Below are positions 190 through 15,305 of a DNA stretch of 15,355 nt, in pieces. This DNA comes from Promethearchaeota archaeon (lineage in GTDB: Archaea > Asgardarchaeota > Lokiarchaeia > Sigyniarchaeales > SOKP01). The translations under genes were made by a program, and so were the position numbers. The notes beneath the pieces are model-generated. The model was not told where the DNA came from. It was given only the letters and a program-made list of their open reading frames with translations, and made no database searches. Position 1 is the stretch's first letter, and each line of letters starts with the position of its first letter. The DNA is taken from NCBI GenBank assembly GCA_011364975.1, contig RDOE01000076.1:1-15355 (forward strand). The letters are read 5' to 3'.

Positions 190-1332
190 ATGGTGGAATC
201 AAATGATATATATAGGAAATTACAGCAGCATATCGACGAGCGTATGCCTGTAGGCTTCCCGAGGAGTGAGTCTGGTGCTGATTTAAGAATCTTAAAGCAT
301 CTTTTCACTCCCGAGGAAGCAGATTTAGTATTGTATTTAAGCGCCTTACCTGAACCTGTTGAACGCGTCTATAAGCGTGTTAAACATACTGGTATAACTA
401 TGGAAGAATTGGAACAAAGATTAGATTCTTTAGTCAAAAGGGGATTAATTATGGGTGGAAGTTTCAACGATCCCAATAAAAAGACATATAGCACCGCCCA
501 ATATGCAATTGGGATGTTTGAATTTCAAGTAGATAAGCTTTATAAAGAATTGGTCCAGGATGCGGATGAGTACAATAAATCTGTATTTTACAAGGAATTT
601 TATAGGCCAAATATTCCTAATCAAATGCGAACCATTCCTGTAGAAAAGAGCGTTGTTCCAGAACATCATATCAGTACATATGATAATGTAGCTAAACTTT
701 TGGAAAATGCTGAGGAACCAATCGTAATACTGAACTGTGTCTGTAAACAAGGAAAGCAGGTATTAGGGGGGTCTTGTAATGTTACAGACATACCTGATAC
801 ATGTATGGGATTTGGAAGTTTGGGAGCAGGTTACTTAGAGTTAGGATCTGGTCGTATGGTTAGCAAAGATGAAGCATTGGAACGTTTAAAGAAATATCAA
901 GAACTTGGGTTAGTACTTCAGCCTAATAATTCACAAGACTCCGGATTTATTTGTGCGTGTTGTGGCGATTGTTGTCAAAATTTGCTTATGGTAAAACAAT
1001 TTCCTCGTCCAGCGGATTACTTCACATCAAATTTCCACGCTATAGTAGATGCTGATGTATGCGAAGGGTGTGGTACTTGTGTTGAACGGTGTCAGATGGG
1101 AGCTGTAACGCTTGTTAACGATATAGCAGCCATCAATTATGACCGTTGTATTGGCTGCGGTAATTGTGTCGTTACCTGCAAATCGGGAGCAATTCAACTC
1201 GAGAAGAACGAAAAGGAAAAAGTACCTCCGAAAGATTTCAACGCACTTCTACAGAAAATAATGATAAAGAAACGAGGGTTCATAGGGTCAATGAAAATGA
1301 TGGGCAAAATGCTCTTAAAAAAACAAATTTAA
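190..1332 (+). CDS. Fe-S protein: N-terminal HTH-like region, central Cys-rich domain and C-terminal 2x[4Fe-4S] ferredoxin domain
   Basis: C-terminal motifs CEGCGTCVERC and CIGCGNCVVTC; central CVC...C...C and ICACCGDCC; N-terminal 'LFTPEEA...LEQRLDSLVKRGLI' winged-helix-like segment. Confidence 0.85.
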   Translation: MVESNDIYRKLQQHIDERMPVGFPRSESGADLRILKHLFTPEEADLVLYLSALPEPVERVYKRVKHTGITMEELEQRLDSLVKRGLIMGGSFNDPNKKTYSTAQYAIGMFEFQVDKLYKELVQDADEYNKSVFYKEFYRPNIPNQMRTIPVEKSVVPEHHISTYDNVAKLLENAEEPIVILNCVCKQGKQVLGGSCNVTDIPDTCMGFGSLGAGYLELGSGRMVSKDEALERLKKYQELGLVLQPNNSQDSGFICACCGDCCQNLLMVKQFPRPADYFTSNFHAIVDADVCEGCGTCVERCQMGAVTLVNDIAAINYDRCIGCGNCVVTCKSGAIQLEKNEKEKVPPKDFNALLQKIMIKKRGFIGSMKMMGKMLLKKQI

Positions 1333-1547: not shown

Positions 1548-3233
1548 ATGTCAGATGAAGAGAAAAAGGAAAATCTCGGTCAAGAAAATCCTGTTGGTCG
1601 GTTAATGGGAAAGACTACTACTTATGAAGTGTCAATGCAAGTTACTGACCCAAATGTCTTGAGAAACACGTATTTGACAATTTATGGCGAAAAGGATAAA
1701 GAGGGTAAACGACCTCATTATATGTTAAATATTACAGATATGTATAGCGATTCTTCAGGAATGGTCGCGAACTTAATGGTACTAGGAGAGCGACCTAAAC
1801 GACCTTTTGAGGTCGGAGCCGAGGTATATAAAGCAAAAGAGGAACAAATTGAAAGATTATTAGGAATCCATAATCCGCCAGAAGAGTCGGTTTCATTAGG
1901 AAAATTAATTGGATATCCTTTTAATGTAAATTTACTTGTAAAAAATTTTGGGAGAATTTTTATAACAGGTAAAAGTGGCTCTGGTAAATCATATAGTATG
2001 GGTGTATTGTGTGAGGAATTCATGAAAAAAGGCATTCCAGTAGTCATTTTAGATCGCCACGGTGAATATGGTTCATTAAAAGTTGCAGCAAAAGAGCTTC
2101 AAAAAGGAGATAATAATCAGAGTGAATTTGTGGATAAAATTATAGAATTTGCTGATTTAAAGATTAATAAGGGAGGAGATATTGATGTGGAATATTTATT
2201 TTCATTAGATGCAACGGATATTGTCGCTCCGAATTTATGTACTATAGTAAATATGCGTGGAATGGATCTTACAGTACAAGAAATGATCGCGGGAAAATTG
2301 CTCAAAAAATTATATCAAGCGAGTACAAGCAGAAGAATTACACCTTTTTACTTGTTTTTAGATGAAGCCCATCTTTTTGCAGGCAAAAAGAGAACAGACA
2401 CCTGTGAAACTGTAAAATTATTTTCCCAAGAAGGCCGAAAGTTTGGTGCTAATCTAGTAATCGGTACTCAGCGTCCACAATTACTTGATACTACTATCCG
2501 TGCTCAAGCAGGAAGTTGGATCGTACATAATCTTACAGATATAAGAGATATTGATGTGACCATCTCATCTGCAGAAGATTTGAGTCGTGATAATAAGAAT
2601 GATATCTCGGGATTAGATAAAGGAGAATGTATCGTTTGCGGTGAAGCAGTAAAAGGAATTCCGCTGTTTGTTAAAGTTCGACCAAGATTAACTGAACACG
2701 GTGGAATTGGATTTAATCCACTAGACTTTCTACCAAAACAAACTATCGATGAATTACAGAAGCGTAAGCAACGTATTCTTGGTGATAAGTCCGCAAATGA
2801 ATTGGAAACAGGAAAAACTATCTATCAAGAAATTACCGCACCAAAAACATCTGATGAATATTTAGATGAGATTGCAGAATTAAGATTGAAGATAAAAGAA
2901 CTAGAAGATGAAATTTCTATTTTAAAAGAAAAATTAACTAAGGTTGAAGAGGGTGTTCCAACTTCCACAAGTGAAATAACTTTCGATGATCATGTAGAAG
3001 ATCTTGAGACAGAACTTAAAGTGTGGCAAGAAAAGTATAATTACCTCAAAGAATCGATGGAAAATCAAGATTTTATGGGGGGATCTGAGGGTGAATCAAG
3101 CGAACTTATCTTGGATATGCAAAATAAAACTATTGAATTAGAAGCAGAAGTTCAGAAATTTAAATCACGATATACAGACGCATTAATTTTAGCTGAAAAA
3201 GCTATTAATGAATTGAAAAGAAGGTCCAAATGA
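1548..3233 (+). CDS. HerA/FtsK-superfamily (DUF87) P-loop ATPase with a putative N-terminal HAS-barrel and a C-terminal coiled-coil extension
   Basis: Walker A GKSGSGKS (1968-1991), HerA-type ILDRHGEY, Walker B FLFLDEAH (DEAH 2361-2372), Arg-finger EGRKFG and GTQRP. The N-terminus is beta-rich and the tail from ~aa 435 is acidic with heptad periodicity. Confidence 0.88.
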   Translation: MSDEEKKENLGQENPVGRLMGKTTTYEVSMQVTDPNVLRNTYLTIYGEKDKEGKRPHYMLNITDMYSDSSGMVANLMVLGERPKRPFEVGAEVYKAKEEQIERLLGIHNPPEESVSLGKLIGYPFNVNLLVKNFGRIFITGKSGSGKSYSMGVLCEEFMKKGIPVVILDRHGEYGSLKVAAKELQKGDNNQSEFVDKIIEFADLKINKGGDIDVEYLFSLDATDIVAPNLCTIVNMRGMDLTVQEMIAGKLLKKLYQASTSRRITPFYLFLDEAHLFAGKKRTDTCETVKLFSQEGRKFGANLVIGTQRPQLLDTTIRAQAGSWIVHNLTDIRDIDVTISSAEDLSRDNKNDISGLDKGECIVCGEAVKGIPLFVKVRPRLTEHGGIGFNPLDFLPKQTIDELQKRKQRILGDKSANELETGKTIYQEITAPKTSDEYLDEIAELRLKIKELEDEISILKEKLTKVEEGVPTSTSEITFDDHVEDLETELKVWQEKYNYLKESMENQDFMGGSEGESSELILDMQNKTIELEAEVQKFKSRYTDALILAEKAINELKRRSK

Positions 3234-5900: not shown

Positions 5901-7622
5901 ATGAAAGAGAATACTTTATTTATGATAAAATTAGATTTATCAAGAAGACAATCAATTTTAATCATAATTTTTCTGAGCATTTTCATACTTGGCACGTTTT
6001 TGATATTTACAGTACCTTTTTCTGTTAAAAGCACTTATGGGCTTTCAACTATAACGGATGATGGCGTTACTATTGCTTTCAATGTATTTGAACCACAAAA
6101 TGGGGGGAACAATAAACCTGCATTTCTCATTGGTCATGGTTCAATGGTAAATAAAGAAATGGTTAAGGGTTACGCGTTAGAATTAGCTGCAGCTGGATTT
6201 GTCGCTGTACCCTTTGATTTTAGGGGTCATGGTCAAAGCAGTTCTGGTGGGACTAATAACATGACAAAAGATGTTGTAGCAATTCGAGAATATCTTCGTT
6301 CTAGAGGTGATGTTGATATGGATTCTTTAGGATACATTGGTTACAGCATGGGAGGATTAGGACAAGCACTAATTGAAGTGGATTTTTCATTTAAATGTTT
6401 TATTGGAATAGGAACATGGTTGGATCCAAGTTTAAGAAAGGGAAATTCTACCAATCCTTTAAATGTTCTAATGATTGAAGCAATTTTTGATGAAGCAATA
6501 GACCTTCCGACTTTAAAAGAGAGTTTATCTGCTCGAACAGGTTTACCTACATCATCGATTTATGCAAATAAAATGTATGGTTCATTTTATCAGGGAAATG
6601 CATCAATGATATACTTGGATGATGATAGTAACCATTTAAAGGTTGCGTGGGATTACAATTTTATAAGGGAAGCAAGAGATTGGGCAATCACATCTTTTGA
6701 TTTAGAAGTGAAGGATGAGAACTTTTACGTAAACATAAGAGCAATTATTCTTCTAATTCAAGTGATTGGAGGAGTAGGATTTTTCTTTTTGATTATTGAG
6801 CCTCTTTCAAAATTTATCTTATTTTCAAAAGAAGATATTGAAAGAAAGGCAAAAATCGAATATTTTGAAATAAACACTTCAGAAATTTCAAATAGAACAA
6901 TCATTATAAAATCAATACTATTTTCTCTAATATTAGCACTCCCAGGAATATTGATCTTCTTCCCTATATTACTTATCTTACCATTAGCCGTCGCAGCATT
7001 CGTCATGGCACTACTATATGGTCAGATTTTTGGTTTAATCCTTCTATTATGGCGTATCGATAAAAAGGTGGATTATAAGTTTCGTGATATGTTTAGAAAT
7101 ATTTTTAAAGAAAAAGGTCAGATCGTTAGACATTTAATACTAGGGGCAGTTTTATCGGTGGTTCTATATTTAATTGCTTATTCCTCAGTAGGTCTGAATT
7201 ATCTGGGATTGGTACCTTCCGTAGAAAAGTTCTGGACAATACCGATATTTTTTATAATGGCTCTTTTGGTTCTCTTAATACAAAATTTATTGATGCAGGT
7301 TATAATTCAACGTAAATATAAAGACACTCTCAAAGATATTCTTAAAGTGATATTTCTGGGTTTCTTATTTCCGTTCTTATATTTTTTTGTTTACTTGCTA
7401 ATTTTAGGGTTCATTACCAGGAGCTTCTTCTATTTTGGAACTTTCCTTCCTATCTCTATAGTTATGTTTCTATTGACATCTGCTGTTTGTGTTGTAGCAT
7501 ATAAAAAAACAGGTAATATTTTAACTGGAGCGATAATCAGTGCATTCCTGTTAACATTTCTTATAGTGACCATGTCCCCACCTCAAAGTGGCTTAGCATT
7601 CTTGGCAAGATTTATACATTAG
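5901..7622 (+). CDS. Membrane-anchored alpha/beta-fold serine hydrolase with a C-terminal multi-TM domain
   Basis: N-terminal TM/signal anchor; GHG oxyanion motif, DFRGHG, nucleophile elbow GYSMGG, candidate Asp (IFDEAI) and His (DSNHL). About 8-9 hydrophobic segments follow from ~aa 278. Alternative start ATG 5922. Confidence 0.85.
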   Translation: MKENTLFMIKLDLSRRQSILIIIFLSIFILGTFLIFTVPFSVKSTYGLSTITDDGVTIAFNVFEPQNGGNNKPAFLIGHGSMVNKEMVKGYALELAAAGFVAVPFDFRGHGQSSSGGTNNMTKDVVAIREYLRSRGDVDMDSLGYIGYSMGGLGQALIEVDFSFKCFIGIGTWLDPSLRKGNSTNPLNVLMIEAIFDEAIDLPTLKESLSARTGLPTSSIYANKMYGSFYQGNASMIYLDDDSNHLKVAWDYNFIREARDWAITSFDLEVKDENFYVNIRAIILLIQVIGGVGFFFLIIEPLSKFILFSKEDIERKAKIEYFEINTSEISNRTIIIKSILFSLILALPGILIFFPILLILPLAVAAFVMALLYGQIFGLILLLWRIDKKVDYKFRDMFRNIFKEKGQIVRHLILGAVLSVVLYLIAYSSVGLNYLGLVPSVEKFWTIPIFFIMALLVLLIQNLLMQVIIQRKYKDTLKDILKVIFLGFLFPFLYFFVYLLILGFITRSFFYFGTFLPISIVMFLLTSAVCVVAYKKTGNILTGAIISAFLLTFLIVTMSPPQSGLAFLARFIH

Positions 7623-8132: not shown

Positions 8133-9308
8133 TCATAAACTTAAAGGATAATTTCCGAATTCACGAGTCGCTTCAACCATCCACTTTAGATTTTGAACCT
8201 TAACATGAGGATGCATATTAGCGGCGCTAACAATAAACCCACCTCCCGAACCCGCAGTTTTAATTGCGTACTTTACTGCATTAAATACTTCTTCTTTAGT
8301 TCCATAGGTTAAATCATGAGCAACATCAATGTTTCCCATCAGACACAATTTATCTCCTACTTTTTTCTTGACTACAGCCAAGTCTACACCTGCGGTTGGT
8401 TCGAGACTTTGAAGTCCATCAAAACCACAATCAACCACAAAATCTAAAAGAGGGGTTACATGACCATCAGTATGCAATACAATTTTTTGCCCACGTTCAT
8501 GAACCGCATCCGTTATGATTCTATAGGCTGGTAATAGAACCTCATAGAATTTCTTTGGGCTCATCATCGGTCCGGTGTGATATGCCAAATCACCAGACTC
8601 AACAAAAAGTTCTGCACCTGCATCCATGTATGCATTATAACAATCAGCGGTAAACTGAGCTATGACTTCATGCACTTCTTTAATATGTTTAGGATCTTTA
8701 TGAAGCATTCTAGAATAATAAGCCATACCCATTCCTTGAGATGCGCTCTCAAATACACCTGCTAAATCATTAGTTACAGCAACAAAAATGTTATCCTTAT
8801 GCTTCTTATTTATACGTCTATAAAATTTTTTAACCATCGTAGTATATTTTTCCGTTATAGGCCCCTCTATGGCTTCTTTTGTTTCTTTCCATTTTTCAGG
8901 ACTATTAACAGTTCCGTAGAGGTAATAAGGGTTGAAGTTCCCTTTATTATTTCTCGCCTCCCACACTCTCCCGAATATGTCTCTCATAAGTTCTCTCTCA
9001 TCACCGGGATTATCGAAAAACTCCACCGGAACTATTCCAACTTGCATGCAATCTAATCCAATAGCGGAAGCTGCTTCTACACAGCGAGAAAAAATTGAAG
9101 TCTCTACACCTTCTAATAATTTGCTCATCTCTTCTGGCCAATTCTCGGGGTTATCCCTCTTTACTTGCTCTAAGGTATCAAAATCGGTTATTTTAGGTTT
9201 TCCTAAAATTTCATCAACATTATTAGCATCAATCAAAATAGTATGGCAAGGAACTCTATCTGGTTCTTCCAAATTCAGAGCTGTTAATACTCTTTCTCTA
9301 CAATTCAT
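8133..9308 (-). CDS. Uroporphyrinogen decarboxylase (URO-D)/MtaA-CmuA methyltransferase superfamily protein
   Basis: N-terminal RERVLTALNLEEPDRVP; DIFGRVW; GDLAYHTGPMMSPKKF; LHTDG; CLMGNID; GGGFIVS...NLKWMVE. Confidence 0.88.
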   Translation of the reverse strand: MNCRERVLTALNLEEPDRVPCHTILIDANNVDEILGKPKITDFDTLEQVKRDNPENWPEEMSKLLEGVETSIFSRCVEAASAIGLDCMQVGIVPVEFFDNPGDERELMRDIFGRVWEARNNKGNFNPYYLYGTVNSPEKWKETKEAIEGPITEKYTTMVKKFYRRINKKHKDNIFVAVTNDLAGVFESASQGMGMAYYSRMLHKDPKHIKEVHEVIAQFTADCYNAYMDAGAELFVESGDLAYHTGPMMSPKKFYEVLLPAYRIITDAVHERGQKIVLHTDGHVTPLLDFVVDCGFDGLQSLEPTAGVDLAVVKKKVGDKLCLMGNIDVAHDLTYGTKEEVFNAVKYAIKTAGSGGGFIVSAANMHPHVKVQNLKWMVEATREFGNYPLSL

Positions 9309-11773: not shown

Positions 11774-14017
11774 TTAAAGATCTAATTTTTGTTTCCAAAA
11801 ATTAAGTTTCATTTTCAAGTCTTCCTTCTCGGGGAGACTTAGAACATAAGTTTTACTTCTTAAATTGATACTAGTATTATGCATATTCTTTAAGACACTA
11901 TTATACCCTGCTTTATTTACGTATTCACTTTGAAATTTTTCTAATGCTGTTGATATCTCTAATCCTGTAAGGGTCTCAATCCCATCCATTATTAAATTAA
12001 ATTGTTTTGATAAGATACCTTTTGCGTCTTCTGAAATGGTCTTTGGTATTACTTTTTCCTCAGAGGGAGGGACTTCTGGTTGGGGAGATGTTATGATTTT
12101 TGGTTCATGAACTGCAGGTTGTAATTTCACAGGTTCTAATTTCACGGGTTCTATTGGAGGTTGTGAAGGGATAGGTTCTTCTTTTCCAAGGGACGATTTT
12201 ATAGATTGCATAACATCTTTTCTTGAAGACATCCAAGCTTCTTCAAGTATCGGTACAAATATTTTTATGTGTTCTTCAATAATACTTCCAATTCCCGCTA
12301 TTTCCGTTATTAAATCACCTTTAATTTCCGTTGTTGATAACACACAGACGATAACTTCCTCATAATCTCTATTGATGCCCCATAAATTCTGTAAACCTCT
12401 TTGGCGATAATCAACATTAACCATTTTATCTAGTTGCTGAACGATTGCAGCATGTTGGGGATCTGAAAAGTTAATACTTGTAGCGATTCTAAAATTAATT
12501 CTAGCAGGGCGCTCCATAATTGCTTTAAGATTTATATCAGTTATTTGAGGGGTAACAATTAACACTCGCATCTTGGCTTTTGATATTTGTTCATCGATAT
12601 GAGCTTTAGCACTTTCAGGAGATCTTATAAACCAAATATCTTTCATCGTAATTGATTTTCCTGTTTTAGCTTGATCCCAGAATTCATTCGTGACTTTTTC
12701 AGATACTTCTAATTTTTTTAAAATATCACTCAAAGTATTATCTAAGGTTGCAACAATTTGATTAGAAAAAAGGTCTTTCAAATTTCCAAAAGATTCAAAA
12801 GCAGTTCCAGAAATACCATCAATTTTTTCTTCCGCCATTTTTACTGCTTTATTGAAGTTTTGAGCAAGATCTGCAAAGATTTTCTCCTTATCTTGATCTG
12901 CTTTTGAAGTTAATCCATCAATACTTTTCATAGTATTTTGCAGAGAATCCTTTAGTTTAGTAATCGTATCAGAATCTATGCCTGTTGCCATTTTTTTTAC
13001 TTCATCAGCAAAAGCTACTTGACTTACGCTTAATTGAACATTAATATTATCAGTAATATCTTTTAATTTCGAATTAATTACCTTTTCGATTACTTGATCG
13101 ACAGTTTGTTGAATTACACCTAATCTTAATTTTTGTAAATTGTCAGAAACGGTCGATTTGATATTTGTAAATTCATTTTTAAGGTCTTGAATCTGTCCTT
13201 TAATTATACTAGATGTTTTTTGATTAATATTTTCAAATTGTTTCTTTAAATCATCCATTTGGGGAGTCATTAACGATTGGGTATAACCTTCAATATTAGA
13301 GATTTCACTGGTGATACCTTTGATTTGATCCATAACTGCTAAGGTATCATCGAATTCCTTTTTCTGAGATTTAATCTGGGTTAGCATATTATCCTTTAAT
13401 TCTTTCATTAATTCAGCGGGTACTTTTGGTTTTTCCACTTTTCCTGATTCAGATTCAAGTTGTCTAAAAGATTTTTCTAGCTGAGCAGGAATGGTTGATT
13501 TTATATCAGAGATGTATTTATGAAATTTTTGAAGTTGACTTACTAAAGCGGCATATGGTGGTAAAGCCGTGTAATGCGGTTGGGCACCAACAATTTCTTT
13601 AAAAAGTCCTTTTTCAACGAACTTTTTAGCTGTTCGAGTACATTCTTCCTTAGTTTTTCCCGTTAAGATTGCCATCTCTCCAATTGAGACCGCTTCACGA
13701 CCAGTAGTTCGAAAGTATAACTCTATTTCACTATCAGACAAATCGATTTCACTTAAGACTTGTCTAGTTAGCTCTTCAGAATAATGCACTTCTTCTTTTT
13801 TAAGAATTTCCTTGACTTCAAAATTTTCAATTTCTAGATATTGGTTAAAGAACACGATTAACTTGTGCTCGGGATCACCATGAATCGATTCCTTCTTAAG
13901 AGGAAATTTTGTTAGGCCTTGATATTCGGTTTTTAAAATCTTAAAGGGTATTTTCTTTAAGCATAATTTACAGGTGTATGGAATTTCTACTTCTTGTTTA
14001 TCTTTAAATAGGTACAT
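11774..14017 (-). CDS. Giant multidomain TrmB-like protein: C2H2-type Zn domain, TrmB wHTH, long amphipathic helical insert, TrmB effector/PLD-like domain, Pro-rich linker and helical C-domain
   Basis: C16xxC19...H46GDPEH51. Residues 88-154 'LSEIDLSDSEIELY...SIGEMAILTG...KFVEKGLF..IVGAQPHYTALPP' fit the TrmB HTH pattern. Residues ~460-595 'IWFIRS...ISKAKMRVLIVTP...INRDYEEVIV...EEAW' fit the TrmB effector domain pattern. Confidence 0.78.
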   Translation of the reverse strand: MYLFKDKQEVEIPYTCKLCLKKIPFKILKTEYQGLTKFPLKKESIHGDPEHKLIVFFNQYLEIENFEVKEILKKEEVHYSEELTRQVLSEIDLSDSEIELYFRTTGREAVSIGEMAILTGKTKEECTRTAKKFVEKGLFKEIVGAQPHYTALPPYAALVSQLQKFHKYISDIKSTIPAQLEKSFRQLESESGKVEKPKVPAELMKELKDNMLTQIKSQKKEFDDTLAVMDQIKGITSEISNIEGYTQSLMTPQMDDLKKQFENINQKTSSIIKGQIQDLKNEFTNIKSTVSDNLQKLRLGVIQQTVDQVIEKVINSKLKDITDNINVQLSVSQVAFADEVKKMATGIDSDTITKLKDSLQNTMKSIDGLTSKADQDKEKIFADLAQNFNKAVKMAEEKIDGISGTAFESFGNLKDLFSNQIVATLDNTLSDILKKLEVSEKVTNEFWDQAKTGKSITMKDIWFIRSPESAKAHIDEQISKAKMRVLIVTPQITDINLKAIMERPARINFRIATSINFSDPQHAAIVQQLDKMVNVDYRQRGLQNLWGINRDYEEVIVCVLSTTEIKGDLITEIAGIGSIIEEHIKIFVPILEEAWMSSRKDVMQSIKSSLGKEEPIPSQPPIEPVKLEPVKLQPAVHEPKIITSPQPEVPPSEEKVIPKTISEDAKGILSKQFNLIMDGIETLTGLEISTALEKFQSEYVNKAGYNSVLKNMHNTSINLRSKTYVLSLPEKEDLKMKLNFWKQKLDL
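12122..12151. repeat. 15-bp tandem duplication encoding EPVKL x2 in the Pro-rich linker
   Basis: TAATTTCACAGGTTC followed by TAATTTCACGGGTTC (1 mismatch). Confidence 0.85.
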
Positions 14018-14022
14018 TTTAT

Positions 14023-14030
14023 ATCATCAC
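14023..14030 (-). promoter_or_regulatory. SD-like GTGATGAT upstream of ATG 14017
   Basis: The minus strand reads GTGATGATATAAAATG within a 31-nt intergenic gap, consistent with co-transcription with the upstream gene. Confidence 0.5.
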
Positions 14031-14048
14031 TTTAAAATTAAATTCTAA

Positions 14049-15305
14049 TTAAAAAATAACTTTTTCTGGATATGAAACTTCTAATAAGTTTAATGCTTTC
14101 TTAGCAACTTCATAGGAGATTTTACCATCTCCATCTTCACTGCGATATGCTTCTCTTATTTTGGGTAATAAATATTCTGGGAAAATAGTTAATGGTTTAA
14201 GATCTGTCAATAAACATATCCAACTTCGTTTATTTTCGTCTTTTATCTCAGTAATAATGTTTAATTTCTTCAAATTGTCAAGTAAAATCTCAGTTACTGC
14301 AAATTCAGAAAAAATCTTAGGGATTTTATCAAGAGGATAATGATTTGAGCGCATGAGAACAAAAAAGTCATAAACATCGGGATTGAGTAATATCGCAGCC
14401 AATTTTTTTGTATCTTCAACACTTTCAGCATAAGGATCATATGTAGAGAAAAAATCTATTGTTTTTTGCTTAAAGAATGGTAATAATTCATTATTTGTGT
14501 CTTTAAAGTGTTTTAGAAGATTTTCATTAGGGATCCTAGTAAACATAATATCTTTAACTAAAAATAAATATTCACCTTGATTTTTAATAACCCCCGTTTT
14601 CTTATCTTTCTCACCCTTAATCCAATCGCGACGGACAAGGTTGAGCTCCAAGAATGGGCGTATTAATATATCAATATTAGCCATTGGTTTCATTTTTTCA
14701 ACAATCTTTTTCATCTCATTCTTGGCAACAGGATTTTCCCTTAGCGTCTCTAAAATCCTTAAACGCTCATCACTGTTATAAATTAAGGCAACCTTCTGTA
14801 ATTTATCTAATTGGCTTAATCGTTCTACTTGAAAGATCGTATATTTTAATTCATTCATTAAGCGAATATTTACATTTGAGATTAAATCTAATTGTCTAGT
14901 ATTCGCAGCCTTTGTGAGTTTATCAAAAATATTGTCTAATCTTTTTGCCATATCTTTTATCAAATCTTCAAAAAGCTCGATTTCATCATCTAATTCAAAA
15001 AGAGAAAGGGTTAAATATTGAGTGCCATCCGCTAATTGTCTGAAATAAGATAAAACTTGATATGGAGTTTCTCTTAATCTTCCTGCATAAAAGTTACTAA
15101 AACCATATTTCATGCCAAAGACACCAGTAGTATGTTGATAAAACGTTGCGAAAATGTCGTTTTCTACTATTAAACCAGAATAATTAGGTTCATTAAATTC
15201 TTCATTTTGAAATATTAATTGAATGGGACTGAATTCTGGATTAATTTCACCGGTATCTTCCTTTTGATTAATTTTAAATTGAAATGTCAAAATTCCTTGA
15301 ATCAA
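14049..15305 (-). CDS. Hypothetical protein: putative longin/uDENN-like N-domain plus two tandem winged-helix repeats
   Basis: 418-aa ORF with a TTG start, GAGG 9 nt upstream (15315-15318) and an in-frame upstream TAG, so it is complete. Three short beta-like segments and a long amphipathic helix lie at ~aa 70-135, and aa ~171-270 and ~301-385 are internal duplicates. The CDS is secure; the domain calls are inference. Confidence 0.65.
   Translation of the reverse strand: MIQGILTFQFKINQKEDTGEINPEFSPIQLIFQNEEFNEPNYSGLIVENDIFATFYQHTTGVFGMKYGFSNFYAGRLRETPYQVLSYFRQLADGTQYLTLSLFELDDEIELFEDLIKDMAKRLDNIFDKLTKAANTRQLDLISNVNIRLMNELKYTIFQVERLSQLDKLQKVALIYNSDERLRILETLRENPVAKNEMKKIVEKMKPMANIDILIRPFLELNLVRRDWIKGEKDKKTGVIKNQGEYLFLVKDIMFTRIPNENLLKHFKDTNNELLPFFKQKTIDFFSTYDPYAESVEDTKKLAAILLNPDVYDFFVLMRSNHYPLDKIPKIFSEFAVTEILLDNLKKLNIITEIKDENKRSWICLLTDLKPLTIFPEYLLPKIREAYRSEDGDGKISYEVAKKALNLLEVSYPEKVIF

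Follow-up and report, generated by a model that had tools for sequence, protein, structure and literature searches.

Contig RDOE01000076.1 of a Promethearchaeota archaeon (assembly GCA_011364975.1) was analyzed over its whole length of 15,355 nucleotides (nt), hereafter the window. Near one end it carries a gene for a protein made of a longin domain, a helical hairpin and two winged helices. We use the label LWW for this longin / helical hairpin / double winged-helix protein and for the unnamed Asgard family to which it belongs. Our preferred reading, held by a modest margin over doubt, is that LWW acts as a cytoplasmic adaptor or scaffold working with surface proteins that bear a conserved tail, and not as a DNA-binding regulator or a proven GTPase-activating protein (GAP). 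This reading was adopted because LWW is a soluble acidic protein, because its recognition helices are not basic, and because its gene is located beside, or fused behind, the conserved tail.

The ORF (open reading frame) list and the translation showed that a single ORF occupies exactly positions 14049..15305 of the window, on the minus strand: it starts with TTG and encodes 418 amino acids (aa). Orthologues of the 418-aa protein begin with the same residues.

A first-pass annotation, made from the letters of the window, had proposed that the gene contains an internal duplication of a winged-helix unit; the strings it quoted were found at residues 171 (repeat 1), 301 (repeat 2), and 71 and 107 (N-terminal domain). 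A family alignment of 67 sequences (A1) was assembled from homologues of the protein search and cluster representatives of a large library, and column slices of A1 were compared with hhalign, profile against profile. Residues 166-298 aligned with residues 299-418 over 105 columns (18% identity; probability 97.6%; E = 4.7e-12), in the same register as the annotation had read by eye. The controls, in which the N-terminal domain (residues 1-165) was compared with repeat 1 and repeat 2, gave E values of 0.73 and 0.13. Judged by profile comparison, the duplication is real and far beyond chance. It is visible on family profiles and is therefore older than the spread of the LWW family.

Each repeat goes beyond a plain winged helix in that two further helices follow the wing, and the alignments showed that strongly conserved F-L-x-x-D-I...R-x-P-P and F-P-E-Y elements close each repeat. 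The long Lys-rich wing noticed earlier in repeat 1 proved to be a true insertion of 10 residues; it is present in 6 of the 22 rows of alignment A2 and occurs in the 418-aa subgroup only.

An AlphaFold2 model built from A1 had a predicted local distance difference test score (pLDDT) of 92.4 and a predicted TM-score of 0.84. Residues 1-136 were modelled as strand-strand-helix-helix-strand-strand-strand-long helix (E2-14, E21-32, H39-59 broken into two helices, E69-76, E82-90, E96-104 and H109-136). This is the longin order of elements, with a five-stranded sheet packed by helices. A Foldseek search with the N-terminal domain returned chains of the FLCN complex and Lokiarchaeal chains at probabilities of 0.98-1.00, yet no match at E <= 1e-3. 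The suggestion of a longin-like N-terminal domain is thus supported by the element order in the model and by the likeness to solved longin domains. The hairpin that follows (residues 108-166 in the structure search) matched helical hairpins of unrelated proteins only, and its shape is therefore generic.

In the model, each repeat consists of helices and a three-stranded wing, followed by the two extra helices. Among the 50 best matches of the C-terminal model, both repeats resembled ArsR/SmtB, PadR and MarR regulators best; with Foldseek, no match reached E <= 1e-3. Of the structural expectations raised by the annotation, the longin head stood and the winged helices looked ArsR/PadR/MarR-like. 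Tandem winged-helix proteins (SarS, RctB, Smc5/6 subunits, MAGE, RPC62, STK19 and Dcc1) were matched with Foldseek probabilities of <= 0.35 only. As modelled, both repeats are winged helices of a common kind, and the mutual packing of the two units appears to have no clear solved counterpart. No transmembrane segment was predicted for LWW, an acidic, soluble protein with an isoelectric point (pI) of 5.4.

The protein search yielded 593 homologues at E <= 1e-3, the 120 best of which were listed and are 77-100% identical. The organism names among those listed are all Asgard (Promethearchaeota, Loki-, Thor-, Hermod- and Odinarchaeota), and one listed JGI homologue bears only an unrelated enzyme name. 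A 1.84-billion library contributed 150 cluster representatives at E <= 1e-3, down to ~22% identity; they are mostly 360-375 aa long, and fusion proteins of 590-1,351 aa occur among them. The source genome (3.74 Mb in 200 contigs, the window being one whole contig) contains at least six full-length LWW copies. Of 201 genomes sampled, 148 gave matches at E <= 1e-5, in numbers reaching 10 or more in a single genome, and 20 of the 27 taxonomic families are represented; the 40 further genomes sampled from the host's own taxonomic family were all positive. At the same threshold LWW was not found in families f5 (0/21), f22 (0/10), f14 (0/7) and f16 (0/5). The sample covered the Asgard phylum, and the restriction of LWW to Asgard archaea refers to homologue names plus this sample; the genomes counted, here and below, are kin and not independent. 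In several genomes, paralogues occur in pairs 3-6 kb apart. Many matches in some Asgard families (for instance G088:C419, G070:C55, G028:C328 and G038:C1) carry one in-frame TAG or TAA, and the open-frame lengths suggest that the match simply overruns the end of the gene.

The family is not covered by existing profiles. The window protein had only sub-threshold matches in Pfam, the best being HVO_A0261_N (14.2 bits against a cut-off of 35), and no winged helix-turn-helix (wHTH) family attained its Pfam cut-off. NCBIfam returned nothing, the sequences of the PDB gave no match at E <= 10, and the ESM Atlas returned unnamed Promethearchaeota clusters only. In relatives, weak wHTH profile matches were detected at both repeat positions.

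Analysis of the genes upstream from LWW identified a recurrent partner. All 11 orthologous loci with a usable upstream flank have one to four genes upstream, on the opposite strand, coding for proteins of ~540-2,200 aa. Each of these proteins combines a hydrophobic segment near its N-terminus with one transmembrane segment ~90-130 residues before the end, which is followed by a strongly conserved tail. The tail is basic and juxtamembrane (for example Y-P-x-P-V-R-K-V-R-K-Y-R-K-T-L, followed by a conserved P, R-E-x-A-F and L-K-G), and the outer parts of these surface proteins are far less conserved than the tail. The window contig stops 50 nt upstream of the LWW start codon. In the source genome, contigs C108 and C150 have tail-bearing genes at their ends, and such genes also occur beside the LWW paralogue on C142. 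C108 (1-3479) holds two of them in tandem, and on C150 (24040-25706) one runs into the contig end. The assembly probably broke in a repeated surface-gene array, and C108 or C150 may adjoin the window.

The transmembrane segment and tail were converted into a profile (A6), a short one built from one Asgard family, which matched in 92 of the 201 genomes. At least 34 pairs were identified in which a ~370-aa LWW gene has the end of a tail-bearing gene <=250 nt upstream on the same strand, and in at least 16 genomes tail-bearing arrays lie divergently beside the 418-aa type; pairs were matched by hand between the LWW and A6 listings, and the counts are lower bounds. The same upstream homologue was present in 23 of the 30 loci of the best-scoring paralogues (L009-L038). 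Furthermore, the outer part, transmembrane segment, tail, a linker and LWW are joined in one chain on contig C104 of the source genome and in the proteins P0184, P0225, P0240 and P0263. Gene fusion is a classical sign of two products acting together.

The tails encoded next to ~370-aa paralogues contain an extra conserved W-K/D...L-S-L-E-E-I motif which the tails by the 418-aa type do not have; this difference in sequence hints at a correspondence between tail type and LWW subgroup. Two of the surface proteins by paralogues, of 1,457 aa (L055, contig C129, 39-4412, plus strand) and 1,751 aa (L056, contig C142, 1796-7051, plus strand), gave almost no Pfam signal: one weak Big_1 Ig-like match (1.5e-5) was obtained.

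Downstream from LWW in the window lies the gene for a 747-aa coiled-coil protein, CC747. The two genes lie side by side on one strand, with short gaps, in 12 of the 13 orthologous loci, and they do so even where LWW identity falls to 60%; in the remaining locus CC747 is located 4 kb from LWW, with two Ras-like GTPase genes in between. In four further metagenome-assembled genomes, the NCBI locus tags of LWW and CC747 are consecutive. LWW and CC747 probably share an operon. CC747 has an N-terminal C-x2-C...H-x4-H segment, a helix-turn-helix (HTH)-like segment, a helical rod of ~290 aa and a conserved C-terminal globular part, and no transmembrane segment was predicted. It is single-copy in the source genome, and 446 homologues were found, all named ones being Asgard or 'subsurface metagenome'.

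Profile searches with CC747 were not informative: the whole protein matched only prefoldin and apolipoprotein, which is coiled-coil noise; residues 1-165 and 452-620 gave nothing below E 0.2 against the PDB; three segments gave nothing below E 0.02 against Pfam, the C-terminal 108 residues being checked by Pfam alone; and the Atlas search gave no usable match. In one genus, tandem Ras-family GTPase genes with N-terminal extensions of ~160 aa (L039, 4388-5434 and 6246-7301, both plus strand) lie between the LWW and CC747 orthologues.

On these grounds, LWW would sit on the cytoplasmic side of the membrane, docked on the conserved basic tail, and would recruit further factors, its winged helices binding protein rather than DNA. 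One surface of LWW would bind the tail and/or CC747, possibly through the F-L-x-x-D-I...R-x-P-P and F-P-E-Y elements. The recruited factor would be the co-transcribed CC747 in the 418-aa subgroup; in the ~370-aa paralogues, that role would fall to an N-terminally extended Arf-like GTPase (see below), probably held on the longin platform. Eukaryotic longin platforms hold GTPases (PMC3747258), and the longin head of LWW would remain available for pairing with a second longin head or for holding a GTPase. The fold, the repeat, the gene links and the fusions come directly from the data; that LWW physically binds the tail, CC747 and the GTPase, and what the signal would be, is what we infer from them.

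Several observations weigh against an adaptor function. Adjacency, above all in the divergent arrangement, is also compatible with a regulator of surface-protein genes. The contacts of LWW with the tail and with CC747 are predicted from gene links, and the sole complex prediction, a weak one, concerns the GTPase pair; we still lean slightly towards the adaptor. For the window copy the surface-protein genes are not visible, and the link is made by orthology only. A GTPase gene is adjacent in just 1 of the 13 loci of the 418-aa subgroup. Finally, the A6 profile was not found in the LWW-bearing families f8 (0/5), f19 (0/6), f17 (0/5) and f20 (0/7): either the link between tail and LWW is not universal, or the tail has diverged in these families.

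The foremost alternative is that LWW is a GTPase regulator of the NPRL2/NPRL3 or FLCN/C9orf72 type, in which paired longin heads hold a small GTPase and act as an arginine-finger GAP or as an exchange factor. We consider it unlikely for LWW, although it ranks ahead of the other alternatives; such a role could coexist with that of an adaptor, and it suits the paralogues better than the window copy. In at least 22 genomes, which belong to three families, an LWW paralogue has as its neighbour the gene for a 345-aa protein consisting of a ~120-residue N-terminal extension and an Arf-type G domain (Pfam Arf, 4.3e-20): twelve of f1, where the genes are mostly convergent, 5 of 5 of f8 and 5 of 6 of f19. 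In f8 and f19 the two genes are co-directional, with gaps of 9-50 nt. The N-terminal extension had no Pfam match; in alignment A5, which includes the copy at L055 (contig C129, 5540-6577, minus strand), it is conserved, and its first strands look longin- or roadblock-like by eye.

Complex prediction for one pair of the source genome, an LWW paralogue and the Arf-like GTPase, gave a score of 0.56 (runs of 0.56, 0.54 and 0.57), compared with 0.00 for the best control. The runs agreed in >=94% of contacts, and the partner pLDDT was >=81. The mark reached by this score is also reached by 116 of 157 solved complexes and by 2 of 215 mismatches, but the interval from the mark up to 0.60 contains only 18 of the 157 solved complexes and both mismatches; these counts are rough, with own alignments used and GTP riding along. 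The prediction lends weak support to a complex of paralogue and GTPase, and like the gene adjacency it counts for the adaptor reading as well as for the GTPase regulator.

Motifs of the longin head also favour a GTPase regulator. In most of the family, strand 1 ends in W-D-x3-G (W in 39, D in 37 and G in 43 of the 67 sequences, with a P after the G in 11), and the last residues of strand 2 are Y-P-E, the proline of which (position 23) occurs in 65 of 67 rows. A basic residue occupies position 76, where strand 3 ends, in 34 of 67 rows (R in 23, K in 11). The arginine fingers of NPRL2, FLCN and SMCR8 are located in the hairpin of strands 3 and 4; in the window protein, R76 and R78 lie in the turn between these strands. 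The spacing of W-D-x3-G is that of W33-D34...G38-P39 in C9orf72, which is described as a hallmark of GAP-type longins found in some Asgard longins too (PMC12290439). The source genome has 71 Ras-family matches in its 3.74 Mb.

The subgroup of the window protein, however, has F10-K11...K15 in place of W-D...G and retains only the proline, P23. The candidate arginine is not conserved across the family, and a GAP-type arginine finger, for which the annotation had advised a check, was not established: R76 and R78 are in the turn, and the WD/GP motif is missing. With the exception already mentioned, the loci of this subgroup have no adjacent GTPase gene. A general enrichment of GTPase genes beside LWW was also considered and rejected as weak: of 52 distinct loci, just 7 have a G domain within 1.5 kb. 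A convincing link is seen solely between one paralogue group and one GTPase type, and it thus concerns that group rather than the window copy.

Profiles of the eukaryotic regulators did not recognize the family either. No match to the NPR2, NPR3, EAP30, Vps25, folliculin or uDENN families of Pfam was obtained for the window protein (E <= 0.1) or for 34 relatives (E <= 0.01). Neither NPR2 (PF06218) nor NPR3 (PF03666) is one of the 25 families matched by most members of the 67-sequence set. A search of PDB sequences with the family profile brought up no NPRL chain at E <= 10; the 50 best matches of the C-terminal model included no NPRL2/3 or ESCRT-II chain, and among its listed Foldseek matches there was likewise no ESCRT-II subunit. 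The annotation had likened the protein to NPRL2/NPRL3 or ESCRT-II. The layout is indeed NPRL2/NPRL3-like, with a longin head and two winged helices; a specific kinship with NPRL2/3 or ESCRT-II was not borne out by profiles, and the gene context speaks for a link to surface-protein tails rather than for a GATOR-like or ESCRT-like system.

LWW shares with NPRL2/NPRL3 (Npr2/Npr3 in yeast; GATOR1/SEACIT) an N-terminal longin domain and C-terminal tandem winged helices, of which Npr2/Npr3 are described as having 'two or more' (PMC3747258) or three (PMC3521125). LWW differs in having two, with a helical hairpin between them and the head; moreover, the window protein lacks the GP-type motif, no DEPDC5-like partner was seen, and the context is one of surface proteins and a coiled-coil protein. 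The head resembles most the GAP-type longins of FLCN-FNIP (Lst7-Lst4) and C9orf72-SMCR8, but no DENN domain follows it, and the window protein lacks W-D and G. The Asgard NPRL2-like longins described in a preprint combine a longin with a small C-terminal domain and come mostly from Thorarchaeota (Liu et al., bioRxiv 10.1101/2020.10.19.343400). Compared with these, and with the Lokiarchaeal Roadblock-Longin protein (PDB 8yqg), LWW has two winged helices; the NPRL2-like family does not fit LWW well, and LWW may be another of the longin groups listed there. In full-text searches of the literature we found Asgard NPRL2-like and GAP-type longins, and no winged-helix longin proteins tied to tail-bearing surface proteins.

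The fusion of longin and winged helices in Npr2/Npr3 has been proposed to be older than the last eukaryotic common ancestor (Zhang et al., PMC3521125). A bolder extension of the adaptor reading, which we think rather improbable, is that LWW, the tail and the Arf-like GTPase represent an archaeal forerunner of eukaryotic cargo/receptor adaptors, the NPRL2/NPRL3-type fusion being of Asgard origin and pre-dating eukaryotes. Controlled by an Arf-type switch, a longin-fold protein would then recognize a sorting-signal-like tail, carried by fast-varying surface proteins, at the membrane. The likeness to the small and medium subunits of AP adaptors and COPI is one of function only, and no solenoid large subunits or coat partners were seen at LWW.

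Alternatively, LWW could be a transcription regulator, with winged helices that bind DNA and a longin head that senses a ligand or partner, controlling the divergent surface-protein genes together with the HTH-bearing CC747. We give this a low probability, below that of GTPase regulation. It stays alive because of the ordinary winged-helix matches (both repeats resemble DNA-binding ArsR/SmtB, PadR and MarR proteins best, and weak wHTH matches recur in relatives) and because the core of winged helix 1 is basic in the 418-aa subgroup (pI 9.7, net charge +6, with the Lys-rich wing); in at least 11 loci, in addition, the operon is divergent from the potential target genes. The recognition helices, however, are neutral or acidic: their net charges are -1 and 0 in the window protein, the median is -1 for both across the 67 members, and the family medians for the winged-helix cores are 0 and -3. 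LWW also differs from these regulators in that its matches stay below the family cut-offs and that a longin scaffold surrounds the winged helices. Ten or more LWW matches in one genome argue against a regulator, and fusion behind a transmembrane segment and tail, like pairing with a GTPase, would be unusual for one. Membrane-tethered regulators do exist.

To our knowledge, ESCRT-II subunits have no longin head, unlike LWW. A role as an ESCRT-II-like subunit in membrane remodelling, suggested by the two tandem winged helices and by the ESCRT-II of Asgard archaea (PMC10936438), was already disfavoured and is highly improbable, given that no EAP30 or Vps25 profile matched the window protein or the 34 relatives and that no ESCRT gene was present in the window or among the genes examined in the fetched loci.

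The positions of the LWW features in the window are given in Table 1.

Table 1. LWW, its parts and its operon partner in the window (residues are numbered in the 418-aa protein).
Feature	Position	Strand	Comment
LWW gene	14049..15305	-	418 aa, TTG start, stop codon 14049-14051
Longin domain, residues 1-108	14982..15305	-	runs on into first long helix
Antiparallel helical hairpin, residues 109-165	14811..14981	-	H109-136 and H139-163, from the model
Repeat unit 1, residues 166-295	14421..14810	-	winged helix 1 with Lys-rich wing insertion and two-helix extension
Repeat unit 2, residues 296-418	14052..14420	-	winged helix 2 and two-helix extension
Spacer between LWW gene and next same-strand gene	14018..14048		31 nt; probable operon
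CC747 gene	11774..14017	-	747-aa coiled-coil protein; 31 nt downstream of LWW

No RNA family was detected in the window (Rfam). In the surroundings of the operon, promoter-like sites (17 compared with 19.4 expected in shuffles) and terminator-like sites (2 compared with 1.4) showed no excess. A gene for a metallo-beta-lactamase-fold protein and one of the geranylgeranyl-reductase family come after LWW and CC747 in most of the 13 orthologous loci, which all belong to one taxonomic family; neither has an evident connection to LWW.

Other genes of the window code for a 561-aa HerA/DUF87-type P-loop ATPase with a coiled-coil tail of ~130 residues (1548-3233, plus strand; Pfam DUF87, 4.1e-16), which scored 103 bits against the cut-off of 800 of the named HerA equivalogs and is therefore a divergent member. 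A 573-aa protein (5901-7622, plus strand) has a weak alpha/beta-hydrolase head (Hydrolase_4, 9.8e-6, below cut-off) and a long C-terminal part rich in hydrophobic segments; several genomes keep its gene in synteny with the LWW locus. Two further genes are metabolic, with no evident tie to LWW: one (8133-9308, minus strand; 2.5e-31) codes for an MtaA/CmuA-like methyltransferase of the URO-D fold, the other (190-1332, plus strand) for a 380-aa protein in which two 4Fe-4S motifs follow an N-terminal half without assignment.

In eukaryotes, longin-domain proteins that regulate small GTPases have a central part in membrane traffic and in nutrient sensing. The abundant LWW family, with its NPRL2/NPRL3 layout, offers concrete partners for several of the many unexplained 'eukaryote-like' proteins of Asgard archaea: the surface proteins defined here, the coiled-coil protein and, in the case of some paralogues, a dedicated Arf-like GTPase. 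Each of these can be expressed and tested in vitro. Should the adaptor reading be false, the gene would still be a cleanly defined member of an unnamed Asgard family. If LWW is a tail adaptor, it would be the first defined connection between the Asgard cell surface and the cytoplasmic GTPase machinery, and the family offers a testable archaeal counterpart of eukaryotic membrane-signalling adaptors.

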